A stretch of DNA of 14,341 bases from a virus (IMGVR_UViG_2703718829_000006:1-14341); one strand, 5' to 3'; positions 1 through 9,916 are shown, counted from the first letter of the stretch. The notes: generated by a model not told the origin, from the letters alone. Program-made: numbers and translations.

Positions 1-1170
1 GTGGCCCTCAGTGATACCAAACTTCGTAGCATCAATGGTAAGCCCTACAGCGGCGCACCCGAAGTCACAGATGGTGACGGTTTGAGTGTGCGTATTACTC
101 CGACTGGAACGATTACATTTCAGCATCGATATCGCTGGAACGGTAAGCCTGTTCGCCTCTCTGTCGGCCGGTATCCTGCAATGTCCCTCAAAGAGGCCCG
201 CGTTATCGTCGGTGAGATGCGCGAATTGTACCTCAAGGGGCTAAACCCTAAAAATTATTTTGCCAAAGAAGATGGCGAGCTAACGCTCAAAGAGTGCCTG
301 GATCAGTGGTGGACTAAGTATGTTGAAACGCTGAAGCCTAATACCCAGACGCTGTATAAGTCGGTTGTGTACAACACCATGTACACAGAGTTCCCGGACG
401 CACCGGTCGTAAACATCCCCGTTTCGGCTTGGGTAAGGTTCTTCGACAAGCAGGAGAAGAAAAACGGGAAAAAGGCTCGGGTGCTGCTGCTCCAACTCCG
501 ATCCGTAATGAACTGGTGTATCAGCCGTCAGCTGATCCCTTCGTGCGAGGTGCTGAAACTCAGCGTTAAGACCATCGGCAAGAAACCAGACGTTGGTAGC
601 CGGGTACTCACTTATACCGAGCTGGCAAAAATCTGGTTAGCGCTGGAAAACAATAAGGTCGTTAGCTCCAATAAGGTTCTTCACCAGTTGCTGTTGCTCT
701 GGGGTGCGCGATTATCCGAACTGCGCCTGGCCACCGCAAGTGAGTTCAATATGGGCGATCTGATTTGGACGACGCCAGCCGAGCATTCCAAAATGGGAAA
801 TGTTATTCGTCGGCCTATATTCGACCAGGTTAAACCTTACATTGAAAGGCTTCTCAATGCTGGGAACGATATTCTTTTCCCGGGTCAGGAACTGGACAAG
901 GCTATAGATCGCTCCTCAGCCAATCTCTACATGAAAAAGTTAAGGGATAAAATTGATATACCGGAATGGCGAACCCACGACTTCAGGCGTTCTCTGGTAA
1001 CGAATTTGTCAGGGGAGGGGGTTATGCCCCATGTCACTGAAAAGATGCTGGGGCATGAACTTGGTGGTGTGATGGCGGTGTATAACAAACACGACTGGCT
1101 GGTGGAGCAGAAAGACGCTTATGAGCTTTATGCCGATAAAGTGTTCTGGCACGTCAAACAGCTCGGTTAA
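1..1170 (+). CDS. Tyrosine recombinase / phage integrase, P4-like family. It starts with GTG at the first base of the window, so the true 5' end and any upstream att/tRNA cannot be seen.
   Basis: 389-aa ORF. The N-terminus (MALSDTKLR...GDGLSVRITPTGTITFQHRYRWNGKPVRLSVGRYPAMSLKEAR) is typical of the arm-binding domain of P4-type integrases. The C-terminus has the catalytic-core pattern HDFRRS...GHELGG...AVYNKHDW with a terminal tyrosine. Confidence 0.9.
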   Translation: MALSDTKLRSINGKPYSGAPEVTDGDGLSVRITPTGTITFQHRYRWNGKPVRLSVGRYPAMSLKEARVIVGEMRELYLKGLNPKNYFAKEDGELTLKECLDQWWTKYVETLKPNTQTLYKSVVYNTMYTEFPDAPVVNIPVSAWVRFFDKQEKKNGKKARVLLLQLRSVMNWCISRQLIPSCEVLKLSVKTIGKKPDVGSRVLTYTELAKIWLALENNKVVSSNKVLHQLLLLWGARLSELRLATASEFNMGDLIWTTPAEHSKMGNVIRRPIFDQVKPYIERLLNAGNDILFPGQELDKAIDRSSANLYMKKLRDKIDIPEWRTHDFRRSLVTNLSGEGVMPHVTEKMLGHELGGVMAVYNKHDWLVEQKDAYELYADKVFWHVKQLG

Positions 1171-1339
1171 CGCCTCCTTCGGCTATCCATTTCATAACGG
1201 CTTTTCTGCTATACCGCGTCGGGTACGTTAAAACTGGCTGAGGGAATCCGTGGTCTTTGCGTAAGCGCCATACTGCTGTTTTTTTCTTTTTGAGCAGGTC
1301 GAAAACTTCCTGTTCTTCCATAAAATCAGTAGTAGTCAT
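1154..1339 (-). CDS. Excisionase / AlpA-family small DNA-binding protein (Xis-like).
   Basis: 61 aa counted from the internal ATG at 1339, which has a GAGGA Shine-Dalgarno about 6 nt upstream on the minus strand. The pattern DF..E.....K.TAVWRLRKDHGFPQPV....RYSRKAVMKWI fits AlpA/Xis-type winged helix regulators. The 3' end overlaps the integrase 3' end by 17 bp in convergent orientation. Confidence 0.7.
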   Translation of the reverse strand: MTTTDFMEEQEVFDLLKKKKTAVWRLRKDHGFPQPVLTYPTRYSRKAVMKWIAEGGVNRAV

Positions 1340-1392
1340 GATTTTCCTCGTTGTTAAAGTCTTTATTGTCCGCAACTCTATTCTATGGTGAT

Positions 1393-1632
1393 TCACGCCG
1401 CCCGCATCGAGCGCAGCTTCTTAATGTGCTCGCTCTGTTCCAGTTCAGCCCGGATCTGCCGGGCCTCATCATGGTCGAGCGGTTCAAAGTCGTTGTTAAA
1501 CCTGTACATGCTGGCCGTATTTATCCGTCCTTGGCGCCAGTAGCACACCGTTCTGGCGTCACAGCTGTGAATAATGACTGGCCATCCGTGACCGTCTGGG
1601 AAAATCTGGCCTCGCTGAATGAGTTGAAACAC
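1393..1632 (-). CDS. Hypothetical small early-left protein (79 aa).
   Basis: ORF sits in the minus-strand operon between the TraR-like gene and xis. No family recognised. Confidence 0.45.
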   Translation of the reverse strand: MFQLIQRGQIFPDGHGWPVIIHSCDARTVCYWRQGRINTASMYRFNNDFEPLDHDEARQIRAELEQSEHIKKLRSMRAA

Positions 1633-3312: not shown

Positions 3313-4223
3313 TGGGTAACCTCTTCAAATTTGGCTTTACACTTGGCGTAAACGGCCTGAACCTCTTGCTGTAGGCGCATTCCTGCGGTCATTTTGTAGG
3401 CCGTCTGGAAATGGGTTTTGAGGTCATTCATGTTTTCTGCCTGCTTCATGTCTTCGCAAAGCGAGCGGACGGTGTTAATCAGCTCTTGCTCAGCGTTTTC
3501 TTTCGACTGGATAACTTCACTTTCAGGCGTGTAAGACATAACCGGTTCGGTAAAAATGCCTTCGCTCTCGTTAAGCATGTCCACGGCATTATCGAGACGG
3601 TCAGCGCGCGGCCAGTATTTATAGGCGCGCTTCACGATCGTCTTTCGGGCCATCTCAGACCAGAAGTTGACCCAGGGGCCTTTCGGGGATGTACCGGCTT
3701 TACTCACCTTCCTGATTTCTTCAATTTCGGCGATGCTCATCTCTTCAGTCAGGTAGTCGCCGTCTGATGTTTTAACTGTGCAGTAGCCTCCGATAACGGC
3801 GCCACGCTCTTCAGGTGTGGCGAATGGGTTGTATTTGTGGGCCGGTGCTTTATCGAGGCCAATAGTTTCGTAAGCGTCGTTCGCATGAACCAGCTTGCAT
3901 TGGCCCCACTTAATGACGCCGGCTGATTGGGCTATATGCAAAAGCCCCATATAGCTGATATCAAGGCATACCATGCCGTCACGCGGTACTAAGTAGGCCA
4001 GCTTGCTGGCAGGGTTTAAGCTGATCCCAACCGCTGCCACGTTAATGATTGCGTTCTGAGCGCTGACAGGATTGCTAACTGCCGTTTTGGCTAACGTGTC
4101 ATTGCGCTGAAATAGCTGAATCGCAAACTGGCACTCTTTTGCCCATGTCAGGCTCTGGTCAGTAAGAGCGCTGGTAAACAGCGGCTCTTGCTGTTTAACG
4201 AACTGAATAAGATCGAAGCTCAT
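3309..4223 (-). CDS. recT: RecT-family single-strand annealing recombinase.
   Basis: 304 aa. The block [24 protein letters not shown]...AVDMLNESE closely parallels the conserved RecT block of Rac RecT (GPWVTHWEEMAKKTAIRRLFKYLP...AVSMDEKE). Confidence 0.9.
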
Positions 4224-4516
4224 AGCCCCTCCTCAATGTTGACTTGATGCCGGGCAATGACTTCCACCATGTAGCGCACGTTTTCCGCCATGCGCTCCTG
4301 AAACTCAACATCGTCATCAAACGCACGGGTAATGGCTTTTTTGCTGGCCCCGTGGCGTTGCAAATGATCGATGCATAGCGATTCAAACAGGTGCTGGGGC
4401 AGGCTTTTTTCCATGTCGTCTGCCAGTTCTGCCTCTTTCTCTTCACGGGCGAGCTGCTGGTAGTGACGCGCCCAGCTCTGAGCCTCAAGACGATCCTGAA
4501 TGTAATAAGCGTTCAT
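4220..4516 (-). CDS. gam: Gam, host RecBCD nuclease inhibitor (short GamS-length form).
   Basis: The 98-aa product ([37 protein letters not shown]...) is nearly identical, as recalled, to the C-terminal short form of lambda Gam. 4-bp overlap with recT. Confidence 0.9.
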
Positions 4517-4592
4517 GGCTGAACTCCTGAAAATGGCTGTGAAAATATCGCCCGCGAAATGCCAGGCTGATTAGGAAAACAGGAAAGGGGGG

Positions 4593-4799
4593 TTAGTGAT
4601 TCAGGCCGTTACCGCGTCCGTCGAGAAAAACTTCCACGAGCAAATCACGGGTATAAGTGCGCTCGATGCCGCGATGCAGATAAAGCCGTCCGCGTAAATT
4701 AGCTGATGCAGTCCAGGTACCATCTTTGTGTTTGACCAGCATTCCTGGCATGACCGCGCCGCGATTAACGGTCTGTGTTCCGTAATGTTGATGAACCAT
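4593..4799 (-). CDS. Hypothetical small protein in the kil/cIII position upstream of gam. The start is uncertain: the ORF is open up to a TTG at 5003.
   Basis: The ATG at 4799 is preceded on the minus strand by AGGAG with a 5-nt spacer, giving a 68-aa product (MVHQHYGTQTVNRGAV...). The longer 136-aa frame starts at TTG with no Shine-Dalgarno and has an arginine-rich N-terminus. No family recognised. Confidence 0.4.
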   Translation of the reverse strand: MVHQHYGTQTVNRGAVMPGMLVKHKDGTWTASANLRGRLYLHRGIERTYTRDLLVEVFLDGRGNGLNH

Positions 4800-5052
4800 A
4801 AAAACTCCTGCCCGTAAGCTGGGCTGCTGAACATATAGAGACTTCTGCGCGTATTCAGGCGGTGGATGGCCGCCGGTTGTCATAACTAAGCCGCCTCGTT
4901 GAAGCGACTGAGGTATGAAATGTTGAGTTAATTTCAGCTGGTCACACCGACGTTCACGCGTCCGTTTCACCCCTCGCACTCCCCGAAGCCTGCCGAAATT
5001 CAAACTGCGGATCTAAGCGGTCATCGCAACGGTGAATCAGGTAGTTGCCGTA

Positions 5053-5135
5053 TCGTTGTGTTGTTGCGACGAACTTATTTAAAACTATAGTTGTTTTATC
5101 GTCAACAACAAAAGTTGTTTTATTGGTTGTTTTAG
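5053..5135. promoter_or_regulatory. Putative OL operator / pL region: a cluster of GTTGTT-containing repeats.
   Basis: Direct copies of RGTTGTTTTA at 5089-5098, 5113-5122 and 5125-5134, another GTTGTT at 5060-5065, and an inverted AACAAC at 5104-5109. The same motif recurs in the cI-cro intergenic region. Confidence 0.45.
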
Positions 5136-5245
5136 ATATAACTGATTGTATTTAGGATGGATTTATTTTGTGACTTGAATCGCATAGCGATAACTGAAGC
5201 GAGGTTATGGTGGTTTTTTTAACGGTGTGTGTGATGAGGGGAGGG

Positions 5246-5273
5246 CAAAAGAAAACCCGGCACGGTGACCGGG
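5246..5273 (-). terminator. Putative intrinsic terminator downstream of cI.
   Basis: Plus-strand sequence CCCGG-cacggtga-CCGGG is preceded by caaaagaaaa. On the minus strand this reads as a hairpin followed by a T-rich tract, about 120 nt past the cI stop. Confidence 0.45.
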
Positions 5274-5394
5274 ATTCTTACGCCGTTAGGTAAAGATATT
5301 ATTGCGGTGGCTTAATATTACTACCTAGAGCAAAGATAGGAATTAGTTCTTTACTGAATGAGCACAATGCCCAGTTGATAATTTTTAATTGGTA

Positions 5395-6084
5395 CTACCC
5401 ATGCTTCCTATATGTCTGCGGCATGCTCCCAATAACCTTACCGAAGATGAACACCCGGTTCATCTCGTCTTTCTCGATCGGGTCCCACGGTGAGTAGCTT
5501 TTGTTATCAGAGATGACCAGCAGCTTATCCTTCATCATTTGCAGGCGCTTTACATGGGCTGTGTCGTCGTACAGAAACGCATAGATACCATCACCGTCGA
5601 AAGATTTAACTGTGATATCAACGAACAGCAGATCACCTGGTTCGATCGTTCCTGACATGCTGTCACCACGCACGTTAATGATGCGGATATTTTCCGCCTT
5701 CCTACCATCGAACATGTGACGAGCATCGTCAAACGAGTACTCAACCGAGCGTAGAACTTCTACAAACTCACGGTTGATGACTCCCGGCCCAGCACTGACT
5801 TCTATATCAAGAACGTCAATCTTGAAGTATTTGGAATGGCTGACAGTTGATTGTATTGGTTGCACTGTACTGTCTGACATATTTCCAACGCCAGAAGATA
5901 ACCATTCTGCGCGCACACCCAAAGCGTTCGCGATCTCCACGATTTTAGTTGTTTGATTAGCTTTCCCTGTTTCGATTTTCTGAATAGCAGCCTGGCTAAC
6001 CCCGACCAAATCCCCAAGCGCCTTTTGTGTAAGGCCTCGCGCTAATCTGGCTTCTTTAAGTCTTTCTGAGAGTGTTGTTTTCAT
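5395..6084 (-). CDS. cI: CI-like prophage repressor (N-terminal HTH plus C-terminal S24 LexA-like autopeptidase domain).
   Basis: HTH region LSERLKEARLARGLTQKALGDLVGVSQAAIQKIETGK. The C-terminal domain has GDSM (catalytic Ser) and a VKRL lysine typical of S24 self-cleaving repressors. Start placed at the ATG at 6084; the ORF is open up to 6150, but that upstream ATG lies inside the operator palindrome. Confidence 0.88.
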   Translation of the reverse strand: MKTTLSERLKEARLARGLTQKALGDLVGVSQAAIQKIETGKANQTTKIVEIANALGVRAEWLSSGVGNMSDSTVQPIQSTVSHSKYFKIDVLDIEVSAGPGVINREFVEVLRSVEYSFDDARHMFDGRKAENIRIINVRGDSMSGTIEPGDLLFVDITVKSFDGDGIYAFLYDDTAHVKRLQMMKDKLLVISDNKSYSPWDPIEKDEMNRVFIFGKVIGSMPQTYRKHG

Positions 6085-6161
6085 AGTCCAAATGTACAAC
6101 CAAGGTTTTATTCTATCAAACGAAAATGGTTGTTGACTAAAAACAACCATAGTTTTAATCT
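6072..6161. promoter_or_regulatory. Putative OR operators and pR promoter between cI and cro.
   Basis: 25-bp dyad ATGGTTGTT-gactaaa-AACAACCAT at 6126-6150. A further GTTGTTTT at 6074-6081 abuts the cI start codon. A -35-like TTGACT at 6133-6138 and a -10-like TAATCT at 6156-6161 lie upstream of the cro Shine-Dalgarno GGAGG. Confidence 0.5.
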
Positions 6162-6419: not shown

Positions 6420-6488
6420 ATTTCCATTTCACGCTCTTTAACAATAAGCAATCAACTTAACAGTCAATTCAAACTAAAGGAGTCAATT

Positions 6489-7114: not shown

Positions 7115-8044
7115 ATGGCAAACACTGCTGAGATATTCAATTTTCCAGTGCCGGATGCGGCACAAAAGGAGCCGCGCGTGGCAGATCTCGATGATGGTTA
7201 TACGCGCATTGCAAATGAGTTGCTGGAAGTTGTGATGCTGGCCGGATTAACACAGCACCAGCTTCTGGTCTTCCTGGCTGTCATGCGCAAAACATATGGT
7301 TTTAATAAAAAACTGGATTGGGTGAGCAACGAGCAACTGTCCGAATTGACCGGGATATTGCCGCACAAGTGTTCTGCTGCAAAAAGTGTTCTGGTAAAGC
7401 GTGGGATTTTGATTCAGAGCGGGCGGAATATCGGTATTAATAATGTGGTCAGTGAATGGTCAACATTACCCGAATCAGGTAAGAAAAATAAAGTTTACCT
7501 GAAAGAGGTAAATTTACCTGAATCAGGTAAGAAAAGTTTACCCAAATCAGGTAAAGGCGTTTACCCGAATCAGGTAAACACAAAAGACAAACTAACAAAA
7601 GACAATATAAAACCTTTTTCGTCCGAGAATTCTGGCGAATCCTCTGACCAGCCAGAAAACGATCTTCCTGTGGTGAAACCAGATGCTGCAATTCAGAGCG
7701 GCAGCAAGTGGGGGACAGCAGAAGACCTGACCGCCGCAGAGTGGATGTTTGACATGGTGAAGACCATCGCGCCATCAGCCAGAAAACCGAATTTTGCTGG
7801 GTGGGCTAACGATATCCGCCTGATGCGTGAACGTGACGGACGTAACCACCGCGACATGTGCGTGCTGTTCCGCTGGGCATGCCAGGACAACTTCTGGTCC
7901 GGTAACGTGCTGAGTCCGGCCAAACTCCGCGACAAGTGGACCCAGCTCGAAATCAACCGAAACAAGCAACAGGCTGGCGTGACAGCTAGCAAACCAAAAC
8001 TCGACCTGACAAACACAGACTGGATTTACGGGGTGGATCTATGA
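7115..8044 (+). CDS. O: Replication initiation protein O (lambda O family).
   Basis: Start placed at the ATG at 7115, preceded by GGGAGG. The N-terminal domain (VADLDDGYTRIANELLE...MRKTYGFNKK) resembles lambda O. The iteron origin is embedded mid-gene, as in lambda. The stop overlaps the start of P. Confidence 0.85.
   Translation: MANTAEIFNFPVPDAAQKEPRVADLDDGYTRIANELLEVVMLAGLTQHQLLVFLAVMRKTYGFNKKLDWVSNEQLSELTGILPHKCSAAKSVLVKRGILIQSGRNIGINNVVSEWSTLPESGKKNKVYLKEVNLPESGKKSLPKSGKGVYPNQVNTKDKLTKDNIKPFSSENSGESSDQPENDLPVVKPDAAIQSGSKWGTAEDLTAAEWMFDMVKTIAPSARKPNFAGWANDIRLMRERDGRNHRDMCVLFRWACQDNFWSGNVLSPAKLRDKWTQLEINRNKQQAGVTASKPKLDLTNTDWIYGVDL
7466..7620. repeat. Origin of replication (ori-lambda-like): five 17-bp iterons plus an adjacent A-rich region, inside the O gene.
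   Basis: TTACC-N7-GGTAA palindromic iterons at 7466-7482, 7495-7511, 7514-7530, 7538-7554 and 7561-7577, followed by the A-rich tract 7578-7620. Confidence 0.8.
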
Positions 8045-9038: not shown

Positions 9039-9130
9039 GGTTGACGATAACTCGTGTCTGGAGTTATATTTTGCCCGTTGCCGCAAAATCGGCACACGGG
9101 ATTGGCGTCCCGGAATACTACTCAACGCAT

Positions 9131-9151
9131 ACCGCGTTAAGCGGTTTTTTT
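9131..9151 (+). terminator. Intrinsic terminator after ren (tR2-like position).
   Basis: ACCGC-gttaa-GCGGT hairpin followed by TTTTTTT. Confidence 0.6.
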
Positions 9152-9250
9152 ATGCGCTAAGCACGGCTACGCCCAAATTATGGTGGGCTGTGTGAGGGCT
9201 TCTTCGGGAGCGCCGGGTTTGAGTAGCCGGTTACGCCAACCTTGCACAGT

Positions 9251-9283
9251 TCACCACCAGTCGATTGGCGTCGTTGGTGGTGA
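9251..9283. promoter_or_regulatory. Perfect 9-bp inverted repeat with a 15-bp spacer, just upstream of the Bro-N gene.
   Basis: TCACCACCA (9251-9259) and TGGTGGTGA (9275-9283), about 25 bp upstream of the ATG at 9308. Could be an operator or a 5'UTR hairpin. Confidence 0.4.
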
Positions 9284-9307: not shown

Positions 9308-9916
9308 ATGACTACTCAATTAGCATTCCACAAAACGACTTTTACCCCAATTTGCCACAATAACAGAATTTGGCTTACTGCCACTGAAGTTGGTTTAGCT
9401 CTGGAATATGCGGACGATAAAGCAGTTCAGCGCATTTACTCTCGTCACTCAGATGAATTTACAGATATGATGACAAGGGTGGTCAAAGTGACCACCCCTC
9501 GTGGAATGCAGGAGTCTCGAGTATTTAGCCTTCGCGGAGCCCATTTGATCGCCATGTTTGCACGAACTCCTGTAGCCAAAGAGTTCCGTCGCTGGGTTCT
9601 GGATATTCTCGATCGAGAAGTTCAACAATCCCCAATCATAAAACAATTCACTGATAACGAACTTTGCACACTTGCTTGGTTGTGGCGAGCTGGGGATGCG
9701 ATGTTAACCGCCTGCCAGAACGTTACTCCTCTTCTTCAGGTTGCGGAGCATCGTGAAGCTGGTCGCTTCACTTCTATCGAGCAAGAATATCCCCAGATAC
9801 TCAATAAGGCACAGGCAATCCTTGCCAGAGAAACGGCACATGTAAAATTCCGGCCGTGGCAGGATGATAAGTGGAGTCGAGTTTTGCCGCATTTACGTTC
9901 GGATCGATTACAGTAG
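9308..9916 (+). CDS. Bro-N domain protein (antirepressor/Roi-like family).
   Basis: 202 aa with a GAGGTG Shine-Dalgarno. The N-terminal half fits the Bro-N fold pattern (F....NNRIWLTATEVGLALEY.D......R.......T.GG.Q....I.E.G.Y.LI..S....A..F..WV...). The C-terminal half is unassigned. Confidence 0.8.
   Translation: MTTQLAFHKTTFTPICHNNRIWLTATEVGLALEYADDKAVQRIYSRHSDEFTDMMTRVVKVTTPRGMQESRVFSLRGAHLIAMFARTPVAKEFRRWVLDILDREVQQSPIIKQFTDNELCTLAWLWRAGDAMLTACQNVTPLLQVAEHREAGRFTSIEQEYPQILNKAQAILARETAHVKFRPWQDDKWSRVLPHLRSDRLQ

Follow-up and report, generated by a model that had tools for sequence, protein, structure and literature searches.

In phage lambda the genes N and cIII and the nutL site lie upstream of kil. 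In phi80 the order is pL, nutL, N, tL1A, a conserved RNA motif that is termed R2 here, further sequence that includes the annotated tL1B, and then kil. RNAs are also found ahead of division inhibitors in prophages. DicF of the Qin prophage, which lies upstream of the division inhibitor gene dicB, is a discrete sRNA with its own 3' end. The Rac prophage has the sRNA KilS in the 5' UTR of kilR, which is a precedent for control of kilR at the RNA level (PMC8175672), and kilR is subject to NusG-dependent silencing (PMC5793797). In HK022, a lambdoid phage that lacks N, a conserved structured RNA, put, is present at the start of the pL transcript, and putL begins at the transcription start itself (PMC9378689).

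The present study deals with a stretch of viral DNA of 14,341 nucleotides (IMGVR_UViG_2703718829_000006:1-14341), called the window below, which comes from a lambdoid prophage and spans its immunity and early region. The integrase gene (1-1170, plus strand) lies on the strand opposite to the early-left operon and converges on an xis-like ORF (1154-1396, minus strand) with an overlap of 17 nt, an arrangement that differs from that of lambda. The leftward operon on the minus strand contains, in window order, xis-like, phrog_285, DksA-like, methyltransferase, phrog_1680, Mu-Gam-like, recT and gam genes, the last being a lambda-type gam (4220-4516, minus strand). Read leftward from pL the order is kil, gam, recT and onward, and relatives show the identical order. 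The gene for an S24/HTH repressor is located at 5395-6150 (minus strand), and the rightward genes are Cro/YdaS-like, YdaT-like, O, P, Ren, Ant, NinB, RusA and Q, followed by the lysis genes. Inside the O gene, 7466-7579 holds four to five copies of a palindromic iteron of about 18 bp, TTACCTGAATCAGGTAAA, which is the expected lambda-type replication origin. Between ren and the Ant anti-repressor gene (9308-9916), an IsrK-like Hfq-binding RNA (9079-9151, 60.7 bits) and a C4 antisense RNA (9176-9261, 72.7 bits) sit back to back on the plus strand. Together with Ant these look like a P1/Gifsy-type secondary immunity module within the pR operon, and the terminators of this module would also stop rightward transcription. 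At least 80% of the segment 4200-5500, comprising gam, kil, the leader and pL, was found in 1389 of 5426 complete E. coli genomes.

An earlier note on this DNA had described an ORF at 4593..5003 (minus strand) as the first gene after pL, in the position of kil or N, with three possible starts and a single strong Shine-Dalgarno sequence, and had recognised neither N nor cIII in the left operon. All of this was confirmed from the sequence, from the gene order and from homology to the KilR family, and no homologue of N or cIII was found in the left operon. From TTG 5003 the ORF reads 136 aa, with a translation that includes RLRGVRGVKRTRERR, and its other in-frame starts are ATG 4883 and ATG 4799. 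A canonical Shine-Dalgarno sequence is present at ATG 4799 only (AGGAG at 4805-4809 on the minus strand, 5 nt ahead of the ATG). No such sequence was seen upstream of TTG 5003, and ATG 4883 has just a GAGG 10 nt upstream, itself within a hairpin. It was found that the 68-aa form beginning at ATG 4799 matches PHROG 294 ('Kil protein for bacterial septation inhibition') over residues 1-68 (E 1.3e-37) and aligns with Rac KilR from residue 1 in BLASTP (36% identity, E 9e-13). The match to NCBIfam NF008465 (KilR) gave E 1.8e-17 and 63 bits, which is under the subfamily cut-off of 92, and the similarity to PHROG 294 and NF008465 is of full length, as in a KilR-type Kil. A Pfam search with the 136-aa and 68-aa forms returned no family. 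The position is also that of a KilR-type gene, within the repressor-controlled early-left operon, with gam and the recombination genes downstream of it. In RefSeq, an E. coli prophage that is nearly identical has a 207-nt CDS at the kil position, annotated as 'phage encoded cell division inhibitor protein', and the length of 68 aa for this product is taken from that of the CDS. Judged by homology, 4593..4799 (minus strand, stop codon included) encodes a predicted 68-aa KilR-family inhibitor of host cell division (FtsZ). The kil gene is not new and already has an annotation; in the form in which it was first noted the finding is an ordinary one.

The start of kil was assigned by comparison with 15 Kil homologues, taken from HK225, SEN34, two Klebsiella phages, phiES15 of Cronobacter, phi80, CobraSix and nine genome or MAG contigs. 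All 15 start at the equivalent Met/ATG, and in all 15 a purine-rich, Shine-Dalgarno-like stretch lies within 20 nt 5' of the ATG. Thus the shortest form, the one preceded by AGGAG, appears to be the real one and kil would start at ATG 4799. The scan of genome contigs for kil gave at least nine loci, and the nine contigs are mostly from Enterobacterales, with two labelled Bacillota and Atopobium. These two MAG contigs ('Bacillota bacterium', L007, and 'Atopobium sp.', L013) carry an enterobacterial kil (100% and 85% identical), which is most likely a case of binning contamination. Annotated kil starts conflict among the GenBank records PP925837 (Turner), OV696612 (Perceval), PV340555, PV340558 and PV340567, and in some of them the CDS extends over the leader. 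Turner has a 93-aa ORF in another frame following a 1-nt deletion. In RefSeq genomes the 207-nt (68-aa) form of kil is annotated and the RNA motif upstream is left without annotation. The ORF as reported therefore joins two unlike parts, a real gene in its last 207 nt (4593-4799) and, upstream of this, 204 nt of untranslated leader. It is very probable, from comparative sequence, that Kil is the 68-aa protein and that 4800-5003 is leader RNA, and we hold with good confidence the reading as a whole, that is a 68-aa kil behind an untranslated leader with an RNA motif in it. This settles an ambiguity of the start codon that some GenBank phage records still have wrong.

The promoter pL is predicted from the sequence at 5077..5105 (minus strand), with a -35 TTGACG (5100-5105), a 17-nt spacer and a -10 TTAAAT (5077-5082). 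It aligns with the better promoter TTGATA-17-TATTAT of the hetero-immune phage 4A7; the promoter scan did not list it, its -10 being without an A at position 2. The transcript would start near 5070, since the identity between the window and 4A7 begins abruptly there, at about 5070. An operator 19-mer, TTAAAACTATAGTTGTTTT (plus strand), lies over the -10 and the spacer of pL (5079..5097) and is repeated at oR (6140-6158), the two copies forming the inverted repeat I6 with 95% complementarity. Transcription of the leader from pL would be repressed at oL by the S24-type repressor. The span 5004-5394, which had been proposed for the leader, needs to be shifted, because pL is at 5105-5077 and does not adjoin the repressor gene, and the leader runs from about 5070 to 4800. 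It is about 270 nt long and untranslated, and TTG 5003 is 67 nt inside it. Upstream of pL, the scan gave a clear intrinsic terminator of the repressor transcript at 5246..5273 (minus strand; CCCGGTCACCGTGCCGGG and then TTTTCTTTTG). A block of about 35 nt, CTTCAGTTATCGCTATGCGATTCAAGTCACAAAAT, at 5164-5200 (minus strand) upstream of the oL operators is conserved in 4A7, and between this block and the transcript start the operators of the window and of 4A7 differ.

Alignment of 28 distinct IMG/VR leaders marks 4925..5070 (minus strand) as a lineage-specific 5' part of the leader. It is about 97-99% conserved among hetero-immune E. coli phages and was found in E. coli phages only, whereas phi80-type relatives have a nutL-N-tL1A module in its place. 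Compared with 4A7, the leader is better conserved than the neighbouring genes (96.7% vs about 91.7%). The fold of the whole leader is no more stable than that of shuffled sequences (z = 0.32), hence only a local motif is supported. Downstream of that motif, alignments of related phages show a conserved box, GCGCAGAAGUCU, at 4839..4850 (minus strand), between R2 and the Shine-Dalgarno sequence. A small hairpin in the sequence, GCCC-AGCUUAC-GGGC (4810..4824, minus strand), abuts the Shine-Dalgarno sequence, and in other linker variants a different short hairpin (GCC..GGC, GCGC..GCGC) was seen by eye at this site in related loci. Close to the 5' end, CAACAACACAAC at 5055-5066 (minus strand), about +5 to +16 when counted from the predicted start at pL, is complementary without a mismatch, over 12 nt, to the R1 seed of E. 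coli K-12 GcvB; a match of 12 nt was obtained in only 1 of 500 shuffles. Of the three immunity types with this leader, two conserve it, and it could be a GcvB target, a sponge or a chance match. An anti-sRNA of the AgvB type was considered and set aside, as AgvB lies downstream of pR' and not in the leader, and just the 12-nt complement to the GcvB seed remains.

R2 came to notice in BLAST searches, in which 4920-4839 stood out as a separately conserved segment in HK225, in phi80 and in phages of Klebsiella and Enterobacter, and a 15-mer from this region recovered more than 100 IMG/VR phage loci. It is a two-hairpin RNA motif of about 70 nt at 4855..4924 (minus strand), found by its covariance model with 90.1 bits (E 3e-23) and in one copy in the window. 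At the base of the long hairpin UCAUA (4914-4918) pairs with UAUGA (4880-4884) and is invariant; the middle stem varies freely yet stays paired, and the top, UUC-loop-GAG (4895-4903), is conserved. The second hairpin, GGCGG-CCAUCCA-CCGCC (4858-4874), lies 3' of the long one. In an alignment of 44 distinct copies, 97.3% of the cells are paired versus 27-51% when the partners are slid, and compensatory changes occur in seven pairs. Covariation in the aligned sequences thus supports an RNA structure for the long hairpin. G-U pairs are frequent and the two strands score 90 vs 23 bits, which argues that the structure is formed in the pL-sense RNA. The second hairpin hardly varies and thus has no support from covariation; an independent search, for which it did not serve as bait, gave four new variants only, and its invariance comes partly from how the sequences were collected. 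The copy in the window has every feature that defines the motif, namely the CAUA/UAUG base, the covarying middle stem, the UUC..GAG top, GGCGG-YYAUCCA-CCGCC, the pL-sense orientation and the location upstream of kil. In the variants L063, L047, L127, L059, L038 and L112 the GC hairpin is followed at 0-8 nt by a run of 5-8 U and could be a terminator. In the window it is UGAAUAC that follows the GC hairpin, and not a U run.

No Rfam family reached its gathering threshold in 4560-5400, and the matches admitted at E up to 10 did not rise above chance (E about 1 or more). No paper was found in a full-text literature search with the motif sequence, and none of the 25 RefSeq records listed has a feature over R2. 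R2 is present in 2302 of 5426 complete E. coli genomes (42%), O157:H7 included. A KilR-family gene is found within 1 kb downstream of it on the same strand at 66 of the 80 loci that have enough flank (82%), and these kil genes span subfamilies of 37-100% identity. R2 was not found in lambda, Rac and several other kil loci, and HK022 has a weak sub-threshold match (22 bits, E 5e-4). Thus R2 is a frequent but not obligatory partner of kil. A terminator-like intrinsic hairpin with a U-run lies directly 5' of R2 at 66 of 102 loci and is absent in the window. Upstream of R2, a second conserved intergenic linker was observed in L031, L045, L063, L070, L098, L107, L133 and others; it precedes many different accessory genes and is over-called as an ORF that reads ...KAFLPHQRVTTEGKAM. 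Early-left regions seem to be assembled from cassettes with shared non-coding joints. R2 is a widespread and so far unannotated RNA motif, and it constitutes a modest new lead.

The 68 codons upstream of kil (4800..5003, minus strand), with their Arg-rich stretch, had been taken earlier as an optional N-terminal extension that could resemble the RNA-binding motif of an N-type antiterminator. It is extremely unlikely that a 136-aa form is made from TTG 5003 with an N-terminus of this function. The frame is open in the window, KRTRERR is superficially like the TRRRERR of lambda N, and a perfect boxA lies downstream of cro (6433-6444). However, TTG 5003 is without a Shine-Dalgarno sequence and the left leader is without boxA or boxB. 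The open frame upstream of ATG 4799, 71 codons in all, shows no sign of coding selection. Among 27 distinct, near-identical sequences of leader plus kil, the Arg-rich segment is in frame in only 12 and is lost by a stop or a frameshift in the other 15 (CAG>TAG at 4910 in nine, 1-nt or 5-nt indels in others), while kil is intact in 26. An in-frame stop occurs 3-14 codons upstream of the ATG in 8 of the 15 Kil homologues; the other seven have an open upstream stretch that is unlike the extension in the window, and no distant Kil homologue has the extension. Searches with the extension against PHROGs (E up to 10) gave no match to an N family or any other protein, and tblastn (E up to 10) gave nothing except the same leader. 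The codons in question also overlap an RNA motif whose nucleotide sequence is kept in several reading frames. The N-like motif is rejected because the extension is broken in near-identical relatives, absent or unrelated in distant ones, and without similarity to N. The Arg/Gly-rich 'peptide' is a frame reading of a G-rich stretch of the leader (CGG, AGG and GGN triplets), and with this a false lead is removed. Comparative sequence, then, has gone against the longer form on both counts: the 68-aa form is a KilR-family homologue and the extension, which is interrupted or absent in relatives, has no protein relatives. The middle start raises a different question, as ATG 4883 lies within the 3' strand of the base of the R2 hairpin and the conserved GAG(G) of the hairpin top is about 10 nt upstream of this AUG. 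In many phages the AUG opens a frame of 16-24 codons, MTTGGHPPP...(A/V)EVLY, the end of which is kept despite insertions. Other copies read the same invariant nucleotides in other frames, for instance MRRRPSTA.... A conserved leader peptide as the sole cause of the invariant GGCGGCCATCCACCGCC was rejected, for these nucleotides occur in three reading frames or more. This points to selection on the RNA, possibly with translation of a short upstream frame in addition. In the lineage of the window the short frame runs into kil, which gives the 'middle' start of 96 aa. It could be proposed that two isoforms of Kil, of 68 aa and of 96 aa from ATG 4883, are made by fusion of the upstream frame to kil in this lineage, but we consider this improbable. 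The reading frame from this ATG continues into kil without a stop in 23 of 27 close relatives, the GAGG lies 10 nt upstream, the insertions in related phages are often frame-preserving, and longer forms of Kil are annotated in some GenBank phage records. Against this, both the AUG and the GAG take part in base pairs of the hairpin, and Turner, L075 and L100 have an interrupted frame but an intact kil. The MRRRPSTA... reading of other variants places the conservation at the RNA level, and in more distant phages with R2 beside kil the short frame ends before kil.

How leftward antitermination is achieved had been regarded as unclear in the earlier note. No N gene was found anywhere in the window, and the left leader, when checked for nut-like elements, showed neither a boxA at up to 1 mismatch nor a boxB-like hairpin. 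On the other side, a perfect rrn-type boxA, GCTCTTTAACAA, is present at 6433-6444 (plus strand), 14 nt past the cro stop and in the position of nutR, with no boxB-like hairpin in the ~45 nt after it; it may be a relic, or a site at which host Nus factors act without N. An N-type nut system, with boxA and a boxB hairpin in both early transcripts, was therefore not found. A terminator scan of the left operon gave weak matches only (10 found vs 5.9 +/- 2.9 expected), and the leader had none; from pL to its xis end, the operon showed no convincing intrinsic terminator. The leader also showed no strong C-over-G bias of the kind that marks Rho loading, the peak of the C/G ratio being 1.6 and within the background range. 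By analogy with Rac kilR, Rho-dependent polarity in the long untranslated leader may be possible. The simplest reading is that this lineage has neither the N module nor a terminator that N would overcome, so that a leftward antiterminator would be unneeded. After loss of the repressor, leftward expression would need no dedicated antiterminator. The absence of N, nut and put stands, and the puzzle that was built on it largely dissolves, as no convincing terminator has to be overcome. A group of prophages that is common in E. coli expresses its early-left operon without an N, nut or put element. This group is a simple natural case of N-independent early-left expression, and its N-less layout is, like R2, a modest lead.

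Two further explanations for the conserved leader have to be considered along with those above. The leader RNA itself could be an antiterminator that acts in cis on RNA polymerase like the put RNAs of HK022. This would account for expression of the left operon in a phage without N; conservation of the leader sets in at the transcription start, as with putL (PMC9378689), and R2 has two stem-loops in about 70 nt. Yet a covariance model built from 30 of about 50 distinct put sequences collected in IMG/VR (model R1) had no match in 4800-5070, the best match in the window (E 0.3) lying elsewhere, and the put core pattern was missing even at 3 mismatches. The pL and pR transcripts have no common element besides the operators, R2 is single, and the left operon is without a strong terminator to overcome. 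In phi80, moreover, R2 coexists with N and comes after tL1A, not before it. We therefore regard put-like antitermination as very unlikely, and an assignment to put RNAs of the HK022 type fails both on the consensus and on the paired copies at pL and pR. Lambdoid mosaicism is known to involve conserved sequences at module boundaries. R2 sits at such a boundary between highly variable accessory genes, and the usual upstream terminator is absent in the window. R2 and the leader might thus have no function here, being a recombination linker or a phi80-like tL1 leftover after loss of N-nutL-tL1A. This we consider unlikely. The compensatory changes in seven stem pairs, with the conserved top and base, indicate selection for the fold and not just for the sequence; the leader exceeds the neighbouring genes in conservation (in the comparison with 4A7 given above), and R2 is specifically associated with kil.

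Of a role for R2 we can speak tentatively. That R2 is a cis element which restrains or times the expression of toxic kil and of adjacent genes is a possibility to which we give rather less than even weight. The long imperfect hairpin base-pairs AUG 4883 and the SD-like GAG(G), and R2 would act in cis to limit or time the expression of kil. It could do so through control over translation of the short upstream frame that starts at the buried AUG, or through control over the processing or stability of the downstream mRNA. In the N-less lineage R2 would be reached directly from pL. The broader proposal, that R2 is an undescribed cis-regulatory RNA of enterobacterial lambdoid phages which gates kil and the neighbouring early-left genes, is put forward with a little more reserve. 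Gating could come from the opening and closing of a hairpin in which the GAG and the AUG of the short proline-rich frame are concealed, or from a processing or stability signal after the tL1 terminator. The 5' end of the leader, CAACAACACAAC, might also tie the expression of kil to the host sRNA GcvB. Kil arrests division and Rac kilR is restrained at the level of RNA and termination; a dedicated cis element would be a plausible and testable layer of toxicity control.

Among the known systems, Rac KilR is a homologous small protein, encoded like the window kil in an early-left operon ahead of recombination genes and likewise behind a long regulatory 5' region, which in Rac contains the sRNA KilS. 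Rac KilR has 73 aa against the 68 aa of the window Kil, the latter being below the NCBIfam subfamily cut-off. The upstream RNA differs, as the R2 model finds nothing in Rac and no homology of R2 to KilS or to the Rac kilR leader was found. Both KilS and R2 are conserved RNA elements upstream of a toxic division inhibitor in a prophage early operon. However, KilS, like DicF of Qin, is a discrete sRNA with its own 3' end, whereas R2 in the window is without a terminator and looks like a cis element. Lambda Kil shares with the window kil its name, the operon position beside gam and the reported target, but the protein (47 aa) has no detectable sequence similarity to the window Kil, and lambda has no R2. 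Like put of HK022, the leader belongs to an N-less lambdoid phage and forms a conserved, structured 5' part of the pL transcript; the two match neither in sequence nor in structure, and the window has a single copy with no counterpart at pR. It is phi80 that has R2 (73.5 bits), the downstream linker boxes and a kil homologue (41% identity) in common with the window. In phi80 R2 comes directly after N and tL1A, within the experimentally named t-L1 region of record M11919. In the window an unrelated non-coding segment of 146 nt replaces nutL-N-tL1A of phi80, and kil comes directly after R2.
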